Source: Trueperaceae bacterium
GTDB taxonomy: Bacteria > Deinococcota > Deinococci > Deinococcales > Trueperaceae
DNA length: 64,000 bases
Assembly (NCBI GenBank): GCA_965213705.1
Contig: OZ243913.1
Coordinates: 3,584,001 to 3,648,000, forward strand
Direction: 5' to 3'
How positions within the stretch are numbered: the first letter of the stretch is position 1; each line of letters opens with the position of its first letter. Both the position numbers and the translations under genes were made by a program. Shown here piece by piece: positions 33,652 to 42,209 of this stretch. The notes under the pieces are model-generated. The model was not told the origin of the DNA. It saw only the letters and a list, made by a program, of their open reading frames with translations, and made no database searches.

Positions 33652-36219
33652 ATGTCAGAGACCGCCCTTTTTGAGCCAGACCCCGCCGCGCCGGACAGCA
33701 ACAGTGAGTCGAACGGCCACAAAATCGTCATCATCGACGGGCACGCGCTCGCCTACCGCAGTTACTTCGCCATCCGCGAGCTGTCGAACAGCCAGGGGCG
33801 CTCGACGAACGCCATCTTCGGCTTTTTACGCTCGCTGCTGCGCATCCTGAAAGAAGAGGGCGAGTTCGACGCGACGATTGTCACCTTCGACGCGCCCGCC
33901 AAGACGTTTCGGCACGAGCAGTACGGCGACTACAAAGCGGGCCGCGCGCCCGCGCCGGACGACCTACCCGAGCAGATTCGCACCATCAAGCGCGTCGTCG
34001 ACTTGCTGGGGCTGTACCGCACCGAGGTACCGGGTTTGGAAGCCGACGACCTGTTCGGCACCATCGCCAAACGCTGCGAAGTGCAAGGGTACTCAGTCGA
34101 AATCGTCACCGGCGACCGCGACGCTTACCAGCTCGTCTCGGAACGCGTCTGCGTGCGCGGGCTCGACAAAAAAGACCGCTTCGGCCCCAAGGAAGTGTTC
34201 GACAAGTACGGCGTGACGGTGGAGCAGTGGGTGGACTACCGCGCGCTGACCGGCGACTCTTCGGACAACATCCCCGGTGCCAAGGGAATAGGGCCGGTGA
34301 GCGCGAAAAAGCTGTTGCAGAACTACGGCAGCCTCGACTATATTTTGGCGCACCTGGACGAGGTCGAGCCGAAAAAATTCGCTGAGAAGGTCGAAGCGTC
34401 GCTAGAGGACGTGAAATTCTCGCGCGAACTCTCGCGCATCGTCACCGACGCCGACATCAACATCGACCCGAAGGACTGGGCGAAGCGGGAGATGGCAAAG
34501 GACGAACTGCGCGAGTTGCTGGCGGAACTCGAGTTCGGCTCCATCGCTCGAGAACTGGATTTGACCGCGGCAGCAACGGCCTCGGGCGAGCACGACTACC
34601 AGCAGATTTCCTCGGCCGACATTTTTTTCGGCGGCGCTTACGGCTACGTGCTGTCCGAGCAAAGCCCGATGCGGGCCGAACTGACCGAACTCGCGGTGGC
34701 CGCGGCGCGAACCGTCGCGCCCGTGGCGGAAGAGTGGCGGGGAAGCGTGCTGAGCAGCGAAGGCGTACTGAACGCCTGCGACGCCAAGGCGCTGACCGTC
34801 TACGCGCGCAAACAAGGGCTCAAGGTCACGCCGGGCGACGACCCGCTGCTGATGGCCTACGTCCTCGACCCAAATACCGCCTCCCCCGAAGCCCTGGCGC
34901 GGCGCTACGGCACGCCCGACTGGGGCGTGAACGCGATAAGCCGCGCGGTGGTGACGGCGGAGTTGCTGAAAACCTTGCCCGAAAAGCTCACGCCCGAGCT
35001 GAAACACATCTACGAAGCGATAGAAAAACCCCTCCAGGACGTACTCGCCGACATGGAATACTGCGGCGTCGAGGTCGATGTGGCGCTGCTCAAGGCGCAG
35101 TCGGACCTGTTCGCCACGCAGTTGGAAACGCTCGAGAACAAAGTCCGCACCATCGCCGACAACCCCGACCTCAACCTGAACTCGCGCGACCAACTCGCCG
35201 ACCTCTTGTTCGACAAGCTCAACTTGCAAGCGGGGCGCAAAACCTCGACCGGCAAGCGCTCGACCTCGGTGCAGGCGCTCGAGCCGCTCCGCGAGGAGCA
35301 CGAAATCATCGCCATGATTCTCGACTACCGCGAACTCTCAAAACTCAAAAACACCTACCTCGACCCGCTGCCCGCGCTTCTAAACCCCGACACCGGACGC
35401 ATCCACACGACCTTCAACCAGACCGTCACCACGACGGGGCGGCTCTCGAGCGCCAACCCCAACCTCCAAAACATCCCCATCCGCACCGAAATCGGGCGCG
35501 AGATTCGTAAGGCGTTCATCGCGGGCAAGGGCGACAAACTGCTCGTCGCGGACTACTCACAAATCGAACTGCGCATTCTGGCGCACGTGACGGGTGAGGA
35601 AGCGCTGCTGGAAACGTTCCGCACCGGCGAGGACATCCACCGCCGCACCGCCGCGCAGATTTTCGACACCGGCATGGGTGCTGTGGACGCCACCATGCGC
35701 CGCGTCGCCAAAATCATTAACTTCGGCGTGCTCTACGGCATGAGCGCCCACCGTTTGACCCGCGAACTCGGCATCGAATACAAGGACGCCGACGCCTTTA
35801 TTACGGCGTACTTCGAGCGCTACCCGAAGGTGCAGGCTTACATCGACGACACGCTGGCTTTTGCCAGCAAACACGGCTACGTCGAGACGCTGCTGGGCCG
35901 CCGCCGCTACATCCCGGACATCAACTCGAAAAACCGCAACGCGCGCGAGTACGCCGAGCGCACCGCCTACAACATGCCGATTCAGGGCACGCAGGCCGAC
36001 ATCATGAAAATTGCAATGGTGGAGCTTGCGCCGCGTCTGCGCGAACGCCACGCCCGAATTACCCTGCAAGTCCACGACGAACTTGTCATTGAAGCGCCCG
36101 CCGAGAGTACGGCAGAGGTTTCGCAACTCGTCAAGGAGACGATGGAGAACGCTTATCAACTGGACGTGCCCATCGTCGCCGAGGTCGGGGTGGGAGAGAA
36201 TTGGCTCGAGGCGAAGTGA
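33652..36219 (+). CDS. polA: DNA polymerase I
   Basis: IDGHALAYRSYFA 5' nuclease, TGRLSS.NPNLQNIP, DYSQIELR, KIINFGVLYG and QVHDEL motifs. Confidence 0.98.
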   Translation: MSETALFEPDPAAPDSNSESNGHKIVIIDGHALAYRSYFAIRELSNSQGRSTNAIFGFLRSLLRILKEEGEFDATIVTFDAPAKTFRHEQYGDYKAGRAPAPDDLPEQIRTIKRVVDLLGLYRTEVPGLEADDLFGTIAKRCEVQGYSVEIVTGDRDAYQLVSERVCVRGLDKKDRFGPKEVFDKYGVTVEQWVDYRALTGDSSDNIPGAKGIGPVSAKKLLQNYGSLDYILAHLDEVEPKKFAEKVEASLEDVKFSRELSRIVTDADINIDPKDWAKREMAKDELRELLAELEFGSIARELDLTAAATASGEHDYQQISSADIFFGGAYGYVLSEQSPMRAELTELAVAAARTVAPVAEEWRGSVLSSEGVLNACDAKALTVYARKQGLKVTPGDDPLLMAYVLDPNTASPEALARRYGTPDWGVNAISRAVVTAELLKTLPEKLTPELKHIYEAIEKPLQDVLADMEYCGVEVDVALLKAQSDLFATQLETLENKVRTIADNPDLNLNSRDQLADLLFDKLNLQAGRKTSTGKRSTSVQALEPLREEHEIIAMILDYRELSKLKNTYLDPLPALLNPDTGRIHTTFNQTVTTTGRLSSANPNLQNIPIRTEIGREIRKAFIAGKGDKLLVADYSQIELRILAHVTGEEALLETFRTGEDIHRRTAAQIFDTGMGAVDATMRRVAKIINFGVLYGMSAHRLTRELGIEYKDADAFITAYFERYPKVQAYIDDTLAFASKHGYVETLLGRRRYIPDINSKNRNAREYAERTAYNMPIQGTQADIMKIAMVELAPRLRERHARITLQVHDELVIEAPAESTAEVSQLVKETMENAYQLDVPIVAEVGVGENWLEAK

Positions 36220-36244
36220 GATAGTTGTCTGAGAGATGGTTTGG

Positions 36245-36292
36245 CTCGAGCCCAACAAGATAGAGCTGGCGCGAGAGGTGTTTGGGCCCGAG
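36245..36292 (+). repeat. TA-array repeat R1
   Basis: CTCGAGCCCAACAAGATAGAGCTGGCGCGAGAGGTGTTTGGGCCCGAG; imperfect hairpin; right-hand site is the variant CCCGAG. Confidence 0.7.
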
Positions 36293-36353
36293 TAAGCTTT
36301 CAAACGCACGATTTTCAAATACATCCGGGCGTCACACCTGCTAAACTGTAAGC

Positions 36354-36620
36354 ATGAAGGGCGTAAGTTACCTGGTAGATGATAGCGGCAAAAAGACTCA
36401 CGTCGTCCTTGACCTCACCGTATGGCAGGCGACTTGGCAGGCGCTGGTAGAACAACAAGCTGTGCGTCAATCCCGCAAACTGGGAAGTCTGAAAAAAGCT
36501 TTTGAAACGGCAGGTTTCGAAGTCGGGCAGGTAGGCGACACTCTTTTAGAGCCTATGAGCGAAGAGGAACTCGCGCTGTGGTACGACGGCCCTATCTTCC
36601 CCGATGAAGCTCCTTCTTGA
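36354..36620 (+). CDS. Antitoxin (chimeric: N-terminus shared with 39557..39772, VapB-like C-terminus)
   Basis: MKGVSYLVDDSGKKTHVVLDL...RKLGSLK...LLEPMSEEELALW; overlaps the PIN gene; TGnTAAACT -10 upstream. Confidence 0.75.
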   Translation: MKGVSYLVDDSGKKTHVVLDLTVWQATWQALVEQQAVRQSRKLGSLKKAFETAGFEVGQVGDTLLEPMSEEELALWYDGPIFPDEAPS

Positions 36621-36990
36621 CGCGCACACTTTGCTGTGGTGGCTAGCGGGTAATCCTAAACTTTCCATAAAAGCCGCCCAAACCATCGCCGACCCGGACA
36701 ATCAAGCTTTCGTCAGTGTGGCTTCCCTGTGGGAAATGAGCATCAAACACGCGGCTGGAAAATTGCCCGAGTACATCGTTTTAGGCAAAGATGCCGAACT
36801 TACCTTACAACAGCAAGGTTTTATCCTCATCCCTGTCTTGTATGCACATGCCTACGCCGCTGCGAACCTACCTATGCACCACCGCGATCCGTTCGACCGT
36901 CTTCTTTTAGGCACCTCTCAGGTAGAAGGCATGACCCTTGTTAGCAAGGACGAGATTTTCAAAAGTTACCCAGTCCAACTTGTTTGGTAG
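36604..36990 (+). CDS. vapC: VapC/PIN toxin
   Basis: LLLDAHTLLW, SVASLWEM.IK, HHRDPFDRLL and LVSKD motifs. Confidence 0.92.
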   Translation: MKLLLDAHTLLWWLAGNPKLSIKAAQTIADPDNQAFVSVASLWEMSIKHAAGKLPEYIVLGKDAELTLQQQGFILIPVLYAHAYAAANLPMHHRDPFDRLLLGTSQVEGMTLVSKDEIFKSYPVQLVW

Positions 36991-37056
36991 CTCGAGTTCA
37001 ATGATTAAAGTTGATTCAAGAGGGTTTGCAAGAGGTGTTTGAGGTTTCGGCTCGAG
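36991..37056 (+). repeat. TA-array repeat R2 (remnant of the mazF 3' end)
   Basis: CTCGAGTTCAATGATTAAAGTTGATTCAAGAGGGTTTGCAAGAGGTGTTTGAGGTTTCGGCTCGAG aligns to 40057-40123. Confidence 0.85.
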
Positions 37057-37087
37057 CCGTCAACACCCAAGCGCGCTATAATCTGGT

Positions 37088-37312
37088 ATGGAAGAACGCG
37101 TTGTCGTCGATCCCGAGATTTGCAACGGTCGCCCGGTCATTAAAGGTACGCGCGTTACGGTGCAAACCGTCCTTGAGTTTCTGGGTGCAGGCGACAGCGT
37201 CGAGGACGTTTTGAGCGAATACCCTAGCCTCACACATGAAGATATTTTGGCGAGTCTGCGCTACTCTTCGCGCCTGATGGCAAATCACTTCACCCTCGAA
37301 CAGGTCGCGTGA
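37088..37312 (+). CDS. DUF433 family antitoxin
   Basis: DPEICNGRPVIKGTRVTV..VLE.L..G.SVEDVLSEYPSLT.EDI.A.L.Y; TATAAT 5 nt upstream of the ATG. Confidence 0.92.
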   Translation: MEERVVVDPEICNGRPVIKGTRVTVQTVLEFLGAGDSVEDVLSEYPSLTHEDILASLRYSSRLMANHFTLEQVA

Positions 37313-37649
37313 CAGGGTTATTGTTCGATGAAATTTACCGTACAAGCTTCGCTTTACGCCGTCACTTCCTGTTATTCATGCCAAAGATTTAGGCAAGAGT
37401 CCAAGCGACGCAGACTTGTGAAGTCACGCCCGGACAAATGACTTAGCGGTTGTCATTAAAGACGCGGATTTTTCTGACCGCATCCTCATTGCCGACCCTC
37501 CACCTAGAGTCGTACATTTGCGGTTTGGCAACTTGCGTCTGGTAGCCTTTCATGCACATTTAGCGCAAGTTTGGCCTCGAGTTGAAGTGCTTTTAGAAAC
37601 CAACAAACTTGTGAATATTTATTTGGACCGTTTGGAGGCGGTGGCGTAA
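37309..37649 (+). pseudogene. DUF5615 family PIN-like toxin, inactivated
   Basis: Reconstructed MTGLLFDE(N)LP...SPSDADL*SHARTNDLAVVIKDADFSDRIL..DPPPRVVHLRFGNLR. 1-nt deletion at ~37331-37333 and TGA at 37419-37421. Confidence 0.82.
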
Positions 37650-37652
37650 AGC

Positions 37653-37708
37653 CTCGAGCCGAGCAAGTTGGAGCGGGCTTGCAAGAGGTGTTTGGGGTTT
37701 AGGCTGAG
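37653..37708 (+). repeat. TA-array repeat R3
   Basis: First 48 bp identical to R4: CTCGAGCCGAGCAAGTTGGAGCGGGCTTGCAAGAGGTGTTTGGGGTTT; right-hand site degenerate (CTGAG). Confidence 0.92.
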
Positions 37709-37777
37709 CCGTTCCACTTTGCCCTGCTCGTTGATGATGTTTACCATGCGCGTGAGGAGAGTCTAGCATTTGTGGGT
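37704..37777 (-). pseudogene. Degraded remnant of the antitoxin 5' end and promoter (copy of 39365-39441)
   Basis: GTTCCACTTTGCCCTGCTCGTTGATGATG...TAGCATTTGTGGG aligns with the intact antitoxin start. Confidence 0.75.
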
Positions 37778-37797
37778 GACGAGGGAGTTTAAAGGTT

Positions 37798-38466
37798 CTA
37801 AATACCGGTACTTCTTTCCAAAGCACGAAAAGCCGCCTCGACACGCTCCAGAAAATAAGTATTCAGCTGCTCGGGATAACCCGCATCAGCCTTTCCCAAA
37901 CTCTCGTAGTAGGCATCCTCTTCCGCACTCGTGGGAAAATACTCGAGTATAGGGGAGGTTTCCAGCGAAACTCCGGCCAGACCAAAGGTTACCCAAAGAA
38001 AATAGTGGTCCAACACCCGACCCGTGCGCCCGTTCGTGTCCGGGAAGGGGTGAACGTACTGAAAATCGTGGTGCCCCTGAGCGATAATCTTCACGACTTG
38101 TTCCAAGGTCGGTTCGCTCGGTAAGCTTTGCATCTCGTTTACTCGCGCCGCCAGGTTATCAAAGCGTTGTTTCAGTTCCAGGCGTACCTGATGCCACTCT
38201 ACATGTACCAGACCTCCCGGCCCTCGGTTGTCGTTGCGGGGTTGTCCTGCCCACTCGTAGACAGGGTCGAACATTACCTTGTGCAGGGCGTAAATATCGG
38301 AGTCGCTTGGCGAGTGGCCGACCTTGTCCACCCGTGACGCCCGTTTAAAAGTCCAGATACGCCCACAAAGCTCGGCCTCGATAAGAAGAGGCTCGACTTC
38401 CTCATAGCTTGTCAAGAGCCCCAAGCGCGTAGCTTGGGGTAAGGTGATTCGGTTCTGTCTCGCCAT
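37798..38466 (-). CDS. Fic family toxin (class I FicT-like)
   Basis: Fic motif variant HPFPDTNGRTGR; IYALHKVMF..VYEWAGQ.R; YYESL.KAD.G. Start uncertain (38466 or 38526). Confidence 0.88.
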   Translation of the reverse strand: MARQNRITLPQATRLGLLTSYEEVEPLLIEAELCGRIWTFKRASRVDKVGHSPSDSDIYALHKVMFDPVYEWAGQPRNDNRGPGGLVHVEWHQVRLELKQRFDNLAARVNEMQSLPSEPTLEQVVKIIAQGHHDFQYVHPFPDTNGRTGRVLDHYFLWVTFGLAGVSLETSPILEYFPTSAEEDAYYESLGKADAGYPEQLNTYFLERVEAAFRALERSTGI

Positions 38467-38482
38467 GCGGCTCAGGACTGCG

Positions 38483-38677
38483 CTAAGGTGTCGCCGCTTC
38501 TGTCTCGAAGTGTTTTGCAACCTCACGAATGCGCGTTATCGGAATGTCGTAGCCTTCGGCCTTCAAGGACTGGCGGACACTCTCGAGCAGCCTTTCGGGC
38601 AGTTTCGTTTCAGCAGTGGCCGGGTACCGGCGTTGAATAGCGCGCATACGTTCGCTCAAACTTCGCTGGTTTGTCAT
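38483..38677 (-). CDS. FicA/VbhA-like antitoxin
   Basis: 64 aa directly upstream of the Fic gene, carrying the inhibitory (S/T)xxxE(G/N) motif SLKAEG. Confidence 0.78.
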   Translation of the reverse strand: MTNQRSLSERMRAIQRRYPATAETKLPERLLESVRQSLKAEGYDIPITRIREVAKHFETEAATP

Positions 38678-38729
38678 AAAGCACCTCTAACCTTACCGAA
38701 ATAATACCACGAGAAGAATTGTGTTGGGG

Positions 38730-38786
38730 CTCGAGCCGAGCAAGTTGGAGCGGGCTTGCAAGAGGTGTTTGGGGTTTGGGCTCGAG
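38730..38786 (+). repeat. TA-array repeat R4
   Basis: CTCGAGCCGAGCAAGTTGGAGCGGGCTTGCAAGAGGTGTTTGGGGTTTGGGCTCGAG. Confidence 0.92.
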
Positions 38787-38819
38787 TTGCCACCTGCAGG
38801 TTGGAAGAAAGGTTAACCG

Positions 38820-39203
38820 TCATAACGTGTTTACCGAGTACCTTTGCATGATGCTGTCGACTGTCGCCAAAACGAGGTCATGTGCTACCGCTTGGCAGAC
38901 CAGCAAACGGTCGAAGGGGTCACGGTGGTGAGGTGGCAATTTGACAAGCTCCGTTACCGTTACCTCGTCAACGTTCAAGCTGTAGATGTGGTGTCGTTTT
39001 CGCTGCAGAGGTAAGTATGTATCCGGGGACGAGGGTAAGGGCAGTTTGCCCAACTGATACTTGATGATAGCTTCCCAAACCGATACGACGCTCAAATAGA
39101 CTTCGTTGTCCGGGTCGCGCACGGCGTTCAAAATGGGTTCCGGTAAACGTTTATCCCCGTTGATGTACCACAGAAAAACGTGGGTATCCAAAAGGACCTT
39201 CAT
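38820..39203 (-). CDS. vapC: VapC/PIN toxin
   Basis: VLLDTHVFLW, SVVSVWEAIIKYQLGKL, HHRDPFDRLLVCQA and LATVD motifs. Confidence 0.92.
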   Translation of the reverse strand: MKVLLDTHVFLWYINGDKRLPEPILNAVRDPDNEVYLSVVSVWEAIIKYQLGKLPLPSSPDTYLPLQRKRHHIYSLNVDEVTVTELVKLPPHHRDPFDRLLVCQAVAHDLVLATVDSIMQRYSVNTL

Positions 39204-39418
39204 GCACGCTCGAAGTCATCCAAAATATCGCCTGGCAAAGGTGCGTCGAAGTCGTCCGGCACGCTGAACTCGCCTTTGCAAAGCCCGAAAGGGCGAAGTT
39301 TTTCGGTAGGCTCGTCCTCGAGAATCGTCACCAACGCCTGGCGTTTGTCACCCAAGGCGACAGGCTCGAGCAGTTCCACTTTACCTTGCTCGTCGATAAT
39401 GGCTTTCACCGTGCGCAT
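39200..39418 (-). CDS. VapB-like antitoxin (DUF2281-like C-terminus)
   Basis: MRTVKAIIDEQGKVELLEP...RPFGLCKGEFSVPDDFDAPLPGDILDDFE; ATGA overlap with vapC. Confidence 0.85.
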   Translation of the reverse strand: MRTVKAIIDEQGKVELLEPVALGDKRQALVTILEDEPTEKLRPFGLCKGEFSVPDDFDAPLPGDILDDFERA

Positions 39419-39448
39419 GAAAGCAGTTTAGCATTTGTGGGCTGGAGA

Positions 39449-39495
39449 CTCGAGCCGAGCGAGTTGGCGAGAGGTGCCTGGGATTTGGGCTCGAG
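39449..39495 (+). repeat. TA-array repeat R5
   Basis: CTCGAGCCGAGCGAGTTGGCGAGAGGTGCCTGGGATTTGGGCTCGAG. Confidence 0.8.
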
Positions 39496-39556
39496 TAAGC
39501 TTTCAAACGCACGATTTTCAAATACATCCGTACGCCACACCTGCTAAACTGTAGGC

Positions 39557-39772
39557 ATGAAGGGCGTAAGTTACTTGATAGATGACAGCGGCAAAAAAAC
39601 ACATGTCGTTCTCGACCTGGACTTGTGGAGCGAGTGGCGGCAATTTTTTCGGGACGAAGAAGTTTTGCTGTCTCGTAGCGTCGACGACCTGCAAAACCAG
39701 TTGAACGACCTCGAGCAAGACCTTCCCCCCTCCGAACTCGGTGAGTGGCTGGCAGCCTTTAACAACGCGTGA
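39557..39772 (+). CDS. Antitoxin, partner of MazF
   Basis: MKGVSYLIDDSGKKTHVVLDL plus acidic C-terminus; GTGA overlap with mazF. Confidence 0.75.
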   Translation: MKGVSYLIDDSGKKTHVVLDLDLWSEWRQFFRDEEVLLSRSVDDLQNQLNDLEQDLPPSELGEWLAAFNNA

Positions 39773-40116
39773 GCTACGGCTTAGGCGACATCGTCCTTGT
39801 CGATTTGGACCCCACGGTGGGGAGCGAGCAGGGCTTTAAGCGGCCCTGTGTCGTCGTTTCCGAGCTGGCGACCGTCACCGCCTCGCGCTCGAGACCACTC
39901 TACTTAATCGTTCCCCTGACCCGCTCCGAGAAATTGGTGGGAAAGCTTGCGCCGCGTCTCAAAGCGAAACAAGGCGGTTTGCCTGCCGATTCCACGGCGC
40001 TCGTCATGCACTTGCGTAGCATCGACCCGAGGCGAATCATTCGCAGTGTGGGCAAGCTCGAGTCGAGCGAGTTAAAGCTGATTCAAGAGGGGTTGCGAGA
40101 GGTGTTTGGGCTTTAG
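39769..40116 (+). CDS. mazF: MazF/PemK endoribonuclease toxin
   Basis: GDIVLVDLDPTVGSEQ..KRPCVVVS, IVPLT, LRSID.RRI...VG.L. Confidence 0.92.
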   Translation: MSYGLGDIVLVDLDPTVGSEQGFKRPCVVVSELATVTASRSRPLYLIVPLTRSEKLVGKLAPRLKAKQGGLPADSTALVMHLRSIDPRRIIRSVGKLESSELKLIQEGLREVFGL

Positions 40117-40123
40117 GCTCGAG
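40057..40123 (+). repeat. TA-array repeat R6 (coding 3' end of mazF)
   Basis: CTCGAGTCGAGCGAGTTAAAGCTGATTCAAGAGGGGTTGCGAGAGGTGTTTGGGCTTTAGGCTCGAG encodes LESSELKLIQEGLREVFGL*. Confidence 0.85.
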
Positions 40124-40195
40124 CAGTTCCACTTTGTCTTGCTCGTTGATAATGGCTATCACCGTGCGCATGGGGACAGTTAGGCATTTGTGGGT
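40118..40195 (-). pseudogene. Remnant of the antitoxin 5' end and promoter (copy of 39365-39441)
   Basis: Reads MRTVIAIINEQDKVELLEP on the minus strand, then switches into repeat R6 at CTCGAG. Confidence 0.82.
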
Positions 40196-40259
40196 GAGGG
40201 CTCAAGGGCAGCAGCTGAACCGACAGCTCACGCAAGTCAGGTTGCAAATTTGTGAACAA

Positions 40260-41062
40260 CTATACTGGTCTCAATAATATTTTTTCTTCGACTTCCTTAG
40301 CGCCTAAAGGGGAGAGAAAAACTATTTCAGACTCTCGATCATATTCAATCTTCTTGTCTTCGTGGAGAGGAACTAAAACTCTTCCCTTAAATTTGTAGAC
40401 GTCACTGTACTCCGTCCAGTCGAATAGGTCTTCGACCAATACTCCCTTCTCTACGTCAGAATAAGTGAGAAGTAAAACCTTTTGTTTATGGTCGAGATCT
40501 GTCCGAAGGATGCGCTTTTTGCCCCCAATTTCCCATATTTCCGGCAGATTGCGTGTTGAAAGAACATCAACAATTGCTTGTGCTTCTTCTAAGGAGAGGC
40601 TGTGATAAATTCGAATTAGCTCACACATTATCCAATCGGCAAGTCTAACGATTGTTGCAGAATCAATACCGTTGGCCTCTACATCGCCACCGACGTGACC
40701 TATCCCCGTTTTCCACGAATTGTATACATGAAAATCAAAGCTCTTGGAATAATAACGCGCAGCGATTCTGGTCCAGCAGTAGAAGGTGTTTGAATTAACT
40801 TCCTCGCTTCTTCAGAAAAGTTCTTAATATGTGTACCAAACTTAGTATAAGTTCCTGTTAATTCATGTTGAAGGAACCTTAGAATATTTTCTGCAAACTT
40901 TCCAGAGCTAAGTCCAGCTGAATCATATGAGGAATCGAAAAGAGCTTCGCTATAGCGCTTTTTGATTTCAAGATATGAGGAAATAATTCTTGGTCGAAAC
41001 CTTTGTGGAATATTTCCTAATGCTGCTTCTAAGGTGGGAGAATTATGGGGCTGTGTACTCAT
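40260..41062 (-). pseudogene. HEPN-like protein with C-terminal wHTH-like domain, split by a 1-nt frameshift
   Basis: ORFs 40700..41071 and 40260..40628 join if one G is added to the G4 run (CCCC at 40704-40707 on +): ...MYTIRGKRG-IGHVGGDVEANGIDSATIVRLADWIMCELIRIYH..., giving an Rx6H motif. Confidence 0.7.
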
Positions 41063-42209
41063 ACTGACCATCGCTATTTTTCTCGCGTTTTAGTTTCTCG
41101 TCACGCACAAATCTTATTAAGGCTCCTGAAAAATCACTCGCCTTGTAATTACAAGCTAAACTAGCCTCGCAGTGAGTAACAATTTCGCCAATAGTTCGAG
41201 GGATATGAAAAAAGCTTTCGCTGACTAACTTATCTAACATTTCGCTGGGGCCAGGGCGTTTGTTGGAAGAAACTGCTCTAGCTTTTTCGGTTTTTCGCTC
41301 GCTATCGTTTTTTAGCAGACCATCAAACTTGTTGGGTTTGGCGGAAGTCGAAGAGTTGTTCTGCTTCTTTCGAGAACGTTTTTTTGTCGAATAGTAGGGA
41401 ACATCTGAGTTAAGAATTTCTTTAAGCGCTTTCCTTGCGTACTCTTTTCCTGGTTCGCTTAATCCAATGCCGTCATTATAAACAATGGTATCTATATTTT
41501 CACTACTCCAGCGCCGTAGTTCCCGCCTTCTCGTTTCATCTTTTGCGTTATCTCTCAAAACAGTTTGTAATTCTTCGGAGTTAATTTGTTTGTGTCCAAG
41601 CACTTCTTTAGCATACAGAAACAGACAAGCTAATCTTCGAATGAAATCAAAGTTGCTTGATTCTTTGAGACGTTGATCTCCAAGTATGAGGGTACTTCCA
41701 TCTTGGCGAAATATTTTGGATAAAGAGGAAAAATTGGCTTCGCTTTCTTCAGACATGGGTTCTACATCTATGGTTTTATCTTCGAGATCTTGGTCTGGAA
41801 TGAGGTCGGCTTTCCCTTGCCCTAGTTGTTTGTATTCATCTAAAACTTGAGCAGGAGGAAAATTCTGTTTCCACACCTGTTTTGAGCCTAGTCGGTTTCC
41901 TAATATGAAATTTAGAGTGTCTGTCAACTCACCGCCCACATTGTCGGTGAAGGCACTTCGAAAAGTCCGCTTCGATTTGGTTTCTTTGTATTCAATAATG
42001 TTAACGGCAGTATTCTTTTCTTGCTCACTCCGACCTTCGCTACCCAACTCACCTTCACCAACCAATGTGCCACATGAGACGCAGGCACGCCAACCTTCCT
42101 CCAGTATGTCGCGACAATTCTTGCATTTTGCCTGGCTAGCACAGTTCGGGCAAAAAATAGCGCGTTCCGGTAAGACAAAAGAACACGAAGGACAAGAAAT
42201 TTGTGACAT
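41043..42209 (-). CDS. Double zinc-ribbon protein with C-terminal winged-helix-like domain
   Basis: N-terminal CPSC/CPNC/CKNC/CVSC, basic linker, C-terminal FFHIPRTIGEI...LKREKNSDGQYEY; AT-rich DNA. Confidence 0.7.
   Translation of the reverse strand: MSQISCPSCSFVLPERAIFCPNCASQAKCKNCRDILEEGWRACVSCGTLVGEGELGSEGRSEQEKNTAVNIIEYKETKSKRTFRSAFTDNVGGELTDTLNFILGNRLGSKQVWKQNFPPAQVLDEYKQLGQGKADLIPDQDLEDKTIDVEPMSEESEANFSSLSKIFRQDGSTLILGDQRLKESSNFDFIRRLACLFLYAKEVLGHKQINSEELQTVLRDNAKDETRRRELRRWSSENIDTIVYNDGIGLSEPGKEYARKALKEILNSDVPYYSTKKRSRKKQNNSSTSAKPNKFDGLLKNDSERKTEKARAVSSNKRPGPSEMLDKLVSESFFHIPRTIGEIVTHCEASLACNYKASDFSGALIRFVRDEKLKREKNSDGQYEYTAP

Follow-up and report, generated by a model that had tools for sequence, protein, structure and literature searches.

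The Trueperaceae genome analyzed here (G000, a single contig, C1, of 4.25 Mb) carries a row of toxin-antitoxin (TA) gene pairs that are spaced by six short direct repeats, R1 to R6, bounded by the palindrome CTCGAG. This row, referred to below as Array 1, lies downstream of polA in the window, the 64,000-nt stretch of DNA (C1:3584001-3648000) that was analyzed as a whole. Comparisons included a sister species, G001, represented by a 4.3-Mb contig, as well as the relatives G004, G008, G017, G054, G055, G057, and G058. Window coordinates are used for Array 1, and C1 or L-locus coordinates for other sites. From left to right, the locus consists of the following features:

33652 to 36219, plus strand: polA (Pfam DNA_pol_A), the left flank, with a CTCGAG within its last codons
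36202 to 36254, no strand assigned: 53-nt stretch from the polA end to the left CTCGAG of R1, with an inverted 94% identical copy 66.7 kb away beside chaB
36245 to 36292, plus strand: R1; its left part matches repeat Ra of G001 (23/26 nt), and the promoter on its right flank also follows R5
36293 to 36990, plus strand: Cassette 1, with promoter A, antitoxin A1 (36354-36620, no family match), and vapC (36604-36990)
36991 to 37056, plus strand: R2, a nearly full-length copy of the mazF end, identical to R6 in 56/66 nt
37057 to 37652, plus strand: Cassette 2, with a DUF433 gene (37088-37312) and a broken DUF5615 gene (37309-37649)
37653 to 37708, plus strand: R3, identical to R4 in 55/56 nt
37701 to 37776, minus strand: remnant B (vapB 5' end with promoter), a copy of 39362-39441
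37798 to 38677, minus strand: Cassette 3, with fic (37798-38526) and, upstream of it, the gene for a 64-aa partner (38483-38677)
38730 to 38786, plus strand: R4, delimited by the repeat alignment
38820 to 39418, minus strand: Cassette 4, with vapC (38820-39203) and a vapB-like gene (39200-39418), the source of remnant B (39362-39441)
39449 to 39495, plus strand: R5, delimited by the repeat alignment
39496 to 40116, plus strand: Cassette 5, with promoter A, antitoxin A2 (39557-39772), and mazF (39769-40116)
40057 to 40123, plus strand: R6, comprising the 3' coding end of mazF plus the CTCGAG past its stop; the encoded C-terminus aligns with those of homologues
40115 to 40194, minus strand: second remnant B; it and 39362-39441 form a direct repeat around the mazF cassette, likewise in G055
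40260 to 42209, minus strand: low-GC (41%) cargo, with two out-of-frame open reading frames (ORFs) and a 388-aa zinc-ribbon gene

Alignment of R1 to R6 confirmed an earlier, sequence-based reading of this locus (hereafter, the original prediction): all six repeats have the same orientation and are bounded by CTCGAG, with the right-hand site altered in R1 and R3. They are 47 to 67 nt long and 77 to 98% identical over the aligned columns. The claim that R6 is the coding 3' end of mazF also holds, as the MazF homologues share this C-terminus and R2 still translates into the same C-terminal peptide. R2 and R6 coincide in extent, each running from one CTCGAG to the next, and have unrelated flanks. 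The repeats are copies of the mazF coding 3' end between two CTCGAG sites that have been co-opted as a spacer; R1 looks like a hybrid. The reverse possibility, a non-coding element absorbed by mazF, was rejected because the homologues retain that C-terminus. Since all matches of a six-repeat profile to the 4.25-Mb genome are confined to the array copies (six matches with E values of 2e-10 or better; next match, E of 0.61), the repeat is not a repetitive extragenic palindromic (REP) element or another dispersed repeat with many genomic copies. The exact R pattern had no matches in metagenome contigs, in which 80 loci with mazF relatives (at most 60% identical) were recognized, and Rfam returned no match. 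Separately, a dispersed REP-like repeat made up of short AGTACCG units was seen at C1:123792, 459336, 596244, 3881586, and other positions, and mazF was found directly beside or near arrays resembling clustered regularly interspaced short palindromic repeats (CRISPR) in G001 and G008 (L049:2520-3030, L116:4100-6700, and L038:5250-7200).

The five TA cassettes of the original prediction were recognized by Pfam as PIN, DUF433, Fic, PIN, and PemK, but the DUF5615 partner in Cassette 2, also detected by Pfam, is disrupted by a frameshift and an internal stop; the four other TA pairs have open frames. Similarly, the Fic toxin was confirmed, but naming its partner FicA is unproven: the 64-aa protein has no Pfam, NCBIfam, or PADLOC match. 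The three antitoxin candidates have no Pfam matches either, the vapB-like gene scores 27.6 bits against NCBIfam TA_VapB (cut-off, 60), and ESM Atlas returned only matches under 0.9 for two orphan proteins. A1 and A2 are alike only at the N-terminus, and the antitoxin in G055 (L227:1196-1500) matches A2 only at the C-terminus; judging by these partial matches, the antitoxins look chimeric. The cassettes are oriented both ways, with boundaries at, or a few bases from, the CTCGAG sites of the repeats. In addition to the six R copies, the array contains two duplications that the original prediction had missed: the vapB 5' end with its promoter, starting from an internal CTCGAG of vapB (three copies: 39362-39441, 37701-37776, and 40115-40194), and a 135-nt promoter and antitoxin start (two copies, 36281-36415 and 39484-39618). 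The module after R6, described previously as a foreign gene pair, proved to consist of three ORFs without family matches: two abutting out-of-frame pieces, probably of a single broken gene, and the zinc-ribbon gene. The zinc-ribbon protein and its probably broken partner are a possible defence pair; in G001, this cargo is replaced by a PADLOC PDC-S39 gene.

No recombinase could be assigned to the array. A Pfam scan of 14 ORFs, which included no search aimed at transposases, revealed no integrase or transposase, and tyrosine recombinase profiles had no matches in the window or in 11 array loci (serine recombinases and transposases were not searched for); seven tyrosine recombinase matches were found elsewhere in G000. 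The best match to the IntI model TIGR02249 in G000 scored 34 bits against a cut-off of 265. The core boxes of attC sites follow the consensus GTTRRRY / RYYYAAC; GTTRRRY was not found in or near any of the six repeats, and RYYYAAC was found in one of the six, so that the predicted absence of an integrase and of GTTRRRY boxes stands. The hairpins that the original prediction compared with attC sites in R1 and R4 exist in the sense that R4 and R5 (z of -2.8 to -3.6), along with the minus strand of R1, fold better than shuffled sequences, but the likeness to attC is weak. Three of the six repeats fold above shuffles on the minus strand, as would an attC-type bottom-strand hairpin, through their two terminal palindromes, which are the source of the signal; R2, R3, and R6 do not exceed shuffles, and there is no common structure.

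DNA of Array 1 was matched in 6 of 41 genomes and in 13 of 128 in a family-wide search, and an array with R was seen only in G001. The G001 array follows chaB instead of polA, which contradicts the predicted tie to polA. In order, it comprises a HigA remnant, a HicB-like gene (by eye) with a HicA piece, a vapC piece, a DUF433 gene with a stop, HigBA, a repeat, a B remnant, the Fic pair, another repeat, VapBC, the PDC-S39 gene (DUF7380/DUF4209), and the same SDR gene. It thus has two repeats, no mazF, and different end cargo, and is a rearranged version of Array 1, not an empty allele with a single repeat. Homology between G001 and the window breaks at CTCGAG at 36996, 37051, and 39454, but also away from CTCGAG at 36687 and 37322; the junctions in or at repeats agree with the breakpoints expected in the original prediction. 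Content varies further in contigs of an independent sample, representing a third strain, which have 748 nt instead of the 68 nt found in the window around R2. The 53-nt stretch at 36202-36254, which links the polA end to the chaB end, is repeated in inverted orientation at C1:3686881-3686933; it is likely a rearrangement end and accounts for the swapped neighbours. The polA and chaB gene ends themselves resemble each other over a short stretch. The idea of polA as a fixed platform was rejected: polA is followed by another gene and asd in G001, and a different neighbour is common to 7 of 11 other relatives. In G055, which belongs to another genus, a 75% identical mazF cassette is enclosed by the same duplication of the vapB 5' end and has no R copies, and in G054 this duplication surrounds another pair.

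Misassembly of Array 1 is unlikely. Contigs of two runs, possibly from the source sample, showed no differences from the array region and even depth, although none of those listed spans the whole array, and G001 independently has the repeat-Fic-repeat-VapBC layout, with 1787 nt at 94% identity to the window. Overall, the original prediction is partly supported, and none of the four findings that it had named as fatal (an invariant locus, breakpoints away from the repeats, a genome-wide REP, or a misassembled array) was made.

The same architecture recurs with other repeat units. Array 2 (C1:683187-687600, L081:5187-9600), detected by self-comparison of the genome, consists of six modules between copies of repeat P, with RelB-like, ParE, PIN_3/HicB, and DUF4160/DUF2442 families assigned by Pfam and PemK by a separate PemK search. 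Repeat P, with its two or three CTCGAG sites, spans the promoter of the last antitoxin gene as well as the first codons of that gene; in genome contigs, the P pattern matched a single stretch, from Trueperaceae. The order of modules is c1 c2 c3 c4 c5 c6 in G000 versus c6 c1 c4 c2 in G001, with the same orientation and with the joints inside P. Array 3 (C1:2708782-2711196, L085:4782-7196) uses repeat Q, located upstream of two of its genes, and has counterparts in G001 and G004 (L125:2500-5850 and L135); the blocks common to G000 and G004 differ in order and retain their orientation. Its neighbours, as labelled by eye, are purS-like genes in G001 and G004 and tRNA-like genes in G000. For all three arrays, the flanking genes differ between G000 and a relative, and these loci may be rearrangement hotspots. 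TA rows with their own CTCGAG-ended repeats are also present in G058 (L263:6360-13730), where the array includes XisH/XisI and a duplicated HNH cassette, in G057 (L266:11300-14001), and in G017 (L271:5960-9870), which represent three more genera, all three rows being among the loci fetched for their TA similarity.

A uniform scan for families of at least three direct copies covered G000 and 116 partly overlapping loci from relatives (1.89 Mb), which are a non-random sample and in which copies inside one family are not independent. Among the 14 families in G000, the 4 that are mostly non-coding correspond to one CRISPR array and the three TA arrays, with CTCGAG at an end of 6/7, 4/4, and 4/8 of the TA-array segments. 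The relatives yielded 12 families, 5 of them apparently coding repeats and 7 in TA arrays; in the latter, the segments with CTCGAG at an end number 6/7, 3/5, 1/3, 9/9, 4/4, 5/6, and 2/3.

With 8868 copies in G000, CTCGAG is the second commonest hexamer, 6.4 times more frequent than expected from base composition and evenly spread over coding (2.1 per kb) and non-coding (2.2 per kb) DNA, a strong genome-wide excess typical of highly iterated palindromes (HIPs). It is 1.5- to 2-fold denser near stop codons, and positions 36201-40200 of the window contain 18 copies versus 8.4 expected. A crude motif scan for a cognate methyltransferase gave one candidate, which looks type I. G000 also shows strong avoidance of GATC, at 0.1 of its expected frequency, and next to no GAGCTC in the vicinity of genes.

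Many TA genes of G000 lie outside the arrays. The genome has 57 PIN, 9 ParE, 16 DUF433, and 13 PemK matches; of the 82 PIN, ParE, and DUF433 matches, 16, including 4 in arrays, have a flanking direct repeat within 800 nt, and none has an inverted one. In the control genes, the counts are 5/300 for direct repeats, with 2 of these 5 resembling TA pairs by eye, and 1/300 for inverted repeats. Duplicated gene ends are polar: copies of 3' ends lie downstream in 10 cases and upstream in 2, and copies of 5' ends lie upstream in 9 cases and downstream in none (21 rows, including 5 REP-like ones and 3 in arrays). Such polarity is what results when a circle that carries the gene end integrates by a single crossover, and the flanked single TA modules match the known insertion with long target duplication discussed below. 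At C1:258800-260243, a 434-aa transposase-like gene (by eye) was also seen between 78-nt direct repeats, with one copy in G001.

CTCGAG marks the multi-copy arrays far more than the single events, and this contrast is the main indication that pairing of sites favours re-use, although it could also arise if CTCGAG were written into old, neutral repeats. CTCGAG as a general insertion site is unsupported by the ends of indels or of single duplications, and its role beyond marking the repeat ends is unproven because neither set is clearly enriched in it. Among small gaps, 23 of 138 are near CTCGAG, an excess that alignment bias could yield. A single site motif for all arrays also appears weak, as R, P, and Q share only a loose stretch rich in G/T ahead of the right-hand site. 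The predicted use of the palindrome and short homology as an exchange site is therefore clear inside the arrays but not genome-wide.

Array 1 can be described, with somewhat better than even confidence, as a row of TA cassettes spaced by mazF 3'-end copies that has been grown and reshuffled by host recombination between these copies. The repeats, the gene content, the differences in content and order among relatives, and the positions of the junctions on which this description builds were observed directly, and the repeats likely serve as landing pads for ordinary recombination. In the proposed scheme, a TA module would be captured by joining at or beside CTCGAG sites, in either orientation, with a short duplicated gene end left behind. 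A repeat and a cassette could then loop out as one unit by crossover between two repeats and re-enter by a single crossover at another repeat copy, in the same cell or in a relative after uptake. ComEC is present in G000, and DNA uptake between strains may therefore be possible. Shuffling as a unit would keep the repeats direct and preserve the orientation of each cassette; direct repeats combined with cassettes that face both ways, yet retain their orientation between species, fit such a unit. As the repeats would also allow cassettes to be deleted, those retained would be addictive TA pairs. Iterated insertion with long target duplication, followed by repeat-by-repeat crossover that shuffles the cassettes, is a moderately probable account and the best one available.

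Several observations weigh against this account. Repeats of 47 to 67 nt with 77 to 98% identity are poor substrates for RecA, and DdrB was not found in any of four genomes, on which ground DdrB-type annealing was rejected. The cassettes of Array 1 that are shared by G001 and G000 are in the same order. Circular cassettes, suggested as a check of the original prediction, were not seen in the reads: the joints in the read sets included neither a clear circle nor a clean cassette deletion. Two joints considered as circles (39441 to 37806 and 37036 to 40117) were rejected as a G001-like allele mapping onto paralogous pieces, and the other joints, with 30-nt sides, were not used. In 1.1 Mb of G001, 8 of 28 listed sites were matched and 3 of these were single-copy, but none of the 3 inserts was shown to be a TA module. 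As to the palindrome, 7 of 64 insertion ends between G000 and 800 kb of G001 fall within 15 nt of CTCGAG (null, 7%), no nearer than gene edges do; outside arrays, CTCGAG lies within 9 nt of an end in 8 of 28 flanking direct repeats (null, 15%; p of 0.053), and a three-copy repeat near C1 3948681 has no CTCGAG.

A broader version, which is tentative and at present doubtful, holds that CTCGAG-rich Trueperaceae possess an integrase-free, self-assembling cassette system, in which a host machine would open the palindrome, any CTCGAG-bounded gene end or promoter could become an attachment site, and TA or defence modules would be captured, stacked, and reordered. If so, the palindrome would be a gene-capture signal, the first concrete use for a HIP-type word.

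Alternatively, a host enzyme might recognize paired CTCGAG sites in trans (methylated, nicked, or as a single-strand stem) and excise or insert the bounded fragments, with the repeat interior being passive. The unrelated repeat units of four genera do end in CTCGAG, mostly paired ~40 to 65 nt apart; 13 of the 116 close intergenic CTCGAG pairs are in arrays, which represent 0.7% of the non-coding DNA; the G/T-rich run is common to R, P, and Q; and the consulted parts of PMC4390886 link the cyanobacterial palindrome HIP1 to site-specific recombination. However, if the palindromic site were the only determinant, the repeats would not all be direct, R1 resembles the product of a crossover inside a repeat, the 8868 genomic sites are not general insertion points, and the G/T-rich motif occurs 64 times outside arrays, with 5 of its 69 matches inside, which makes this explanation unlikely. 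An ordinary TA hotspot, with neutral gene-end scars of local duplication and deletion in which a palindrome-forming process has written or kept CTCGAG and with cassettes that never move as units, is quite improbable. It would be in line with the abundance of PIN, DUF433, PemK, and ParE genes, the higher CTCGAG density near stop codons, the many remnants and broken genes in arrays, and the duplicated HNH cassette in G058, but not with the reordering of Arrays 2 and 3 with orientation kept and joints in repeats, nor with R2 and R6 sharing sequence exactly from CTCGAG to CTCGAG between unrelated flanks. A decayed integron (an attC-site cluster without an integron-integrase, CALIN) or an array of dif modules served by a distant recombinase, compatible with gene pairs separated by direct repeats, with the seven tyrosine recombinase matches elsewhere in G000, and with the presence of half of the CALINs in genomes without IntI (PMC4889954, parts consulted), is very improbable given the core-box counts, the lack of a consistent hairpin, repeats that are coding or promoter fragments different at each locus, and cassettes that face both ways.

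Recombination between gene-end copies thus remains the favoured explanation of Array 1, and its parts have counterparts among known systems. According to the consulted passages of Furuta et al. 2010 (PMC2853133), insertion with long target duplication places restriction-modification genes between direct repeats of >30 bp without other mobile elements and is found in Thermus thermophilus and other species, most of them naturally competent. The TA arrays are similar in having addiction modules between direct repeats of >30 bp and inserts of <20 kb. In contrast, their cargo is type II TA pairs instead of restriction-modification genes, a single repeat recurs up to six times in a row, the order varies by species, and the ends are iterated palindromes; the passages of that paper describe single insertions, and the word "tandem" has no matches in its main text.

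Hyper-abundant palindromes are shared with cyanobacteria, where the consulted parts of several HIP1 studies report links to recombination, small-repeat insertion, and transformation (PMC4390886, PMC5861425, bioRxiv 10.1101/2024.09.10.611283, and PMC13756078), although the word (CTCGAG) and the phylum are different here. No report of HIP-bounded gene cassette arrays was found in those parts of the HIP1 texts or in literature searches. The arrays tie an unexplained hyper-abundant palindrome to defined joints, which makes the function of HIP words experimentally approachable.

Modules bounded by dif use 28-bp XerC/XerD sites, whereas the repeats described here are 40 to 110 nt long, variable in length, of coding origin, and unrelated between loci. 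Shuffled small modules, often TA pairs, with no recombinase in the array are nevertheless common to both, as far as can be told from the consulted parts of the Acinetobacter study (PMC13141974).

Sedentary integrons and CALINs, as described in parts of Cury et al. 2016 (PMC4889954), similarly form rows of small cassettes with direct spacers, variable content and order, and TA cassettes; variable content (Array 1) and order (Arrays 2 and 3) with joints at the repeat were observed here as well. Unlike integrons, the arrays have no IntI, attC boxes, or attC fold, their cassettes are gene pairs in both orientations, and each array uses as spacer its own fragment of a local gene or promoter; integron tools would therefore miss them. 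Literature searches, with supplements and subscription papers outside their reach, gave no description of palindrome-jointed TA arrays, in agreement with the original prediction, which could not place the architecture among described systems. Long target duplication, integron-like rows, and HIP words are each known, and their combination appears to be new: integron-like stacking and reordering of gene pairs in which each array has its own locally borrowed spacer, a route for a chromosome to gather close to a hundred TA loci. The locus behaves in the manner of an integron array without being one.

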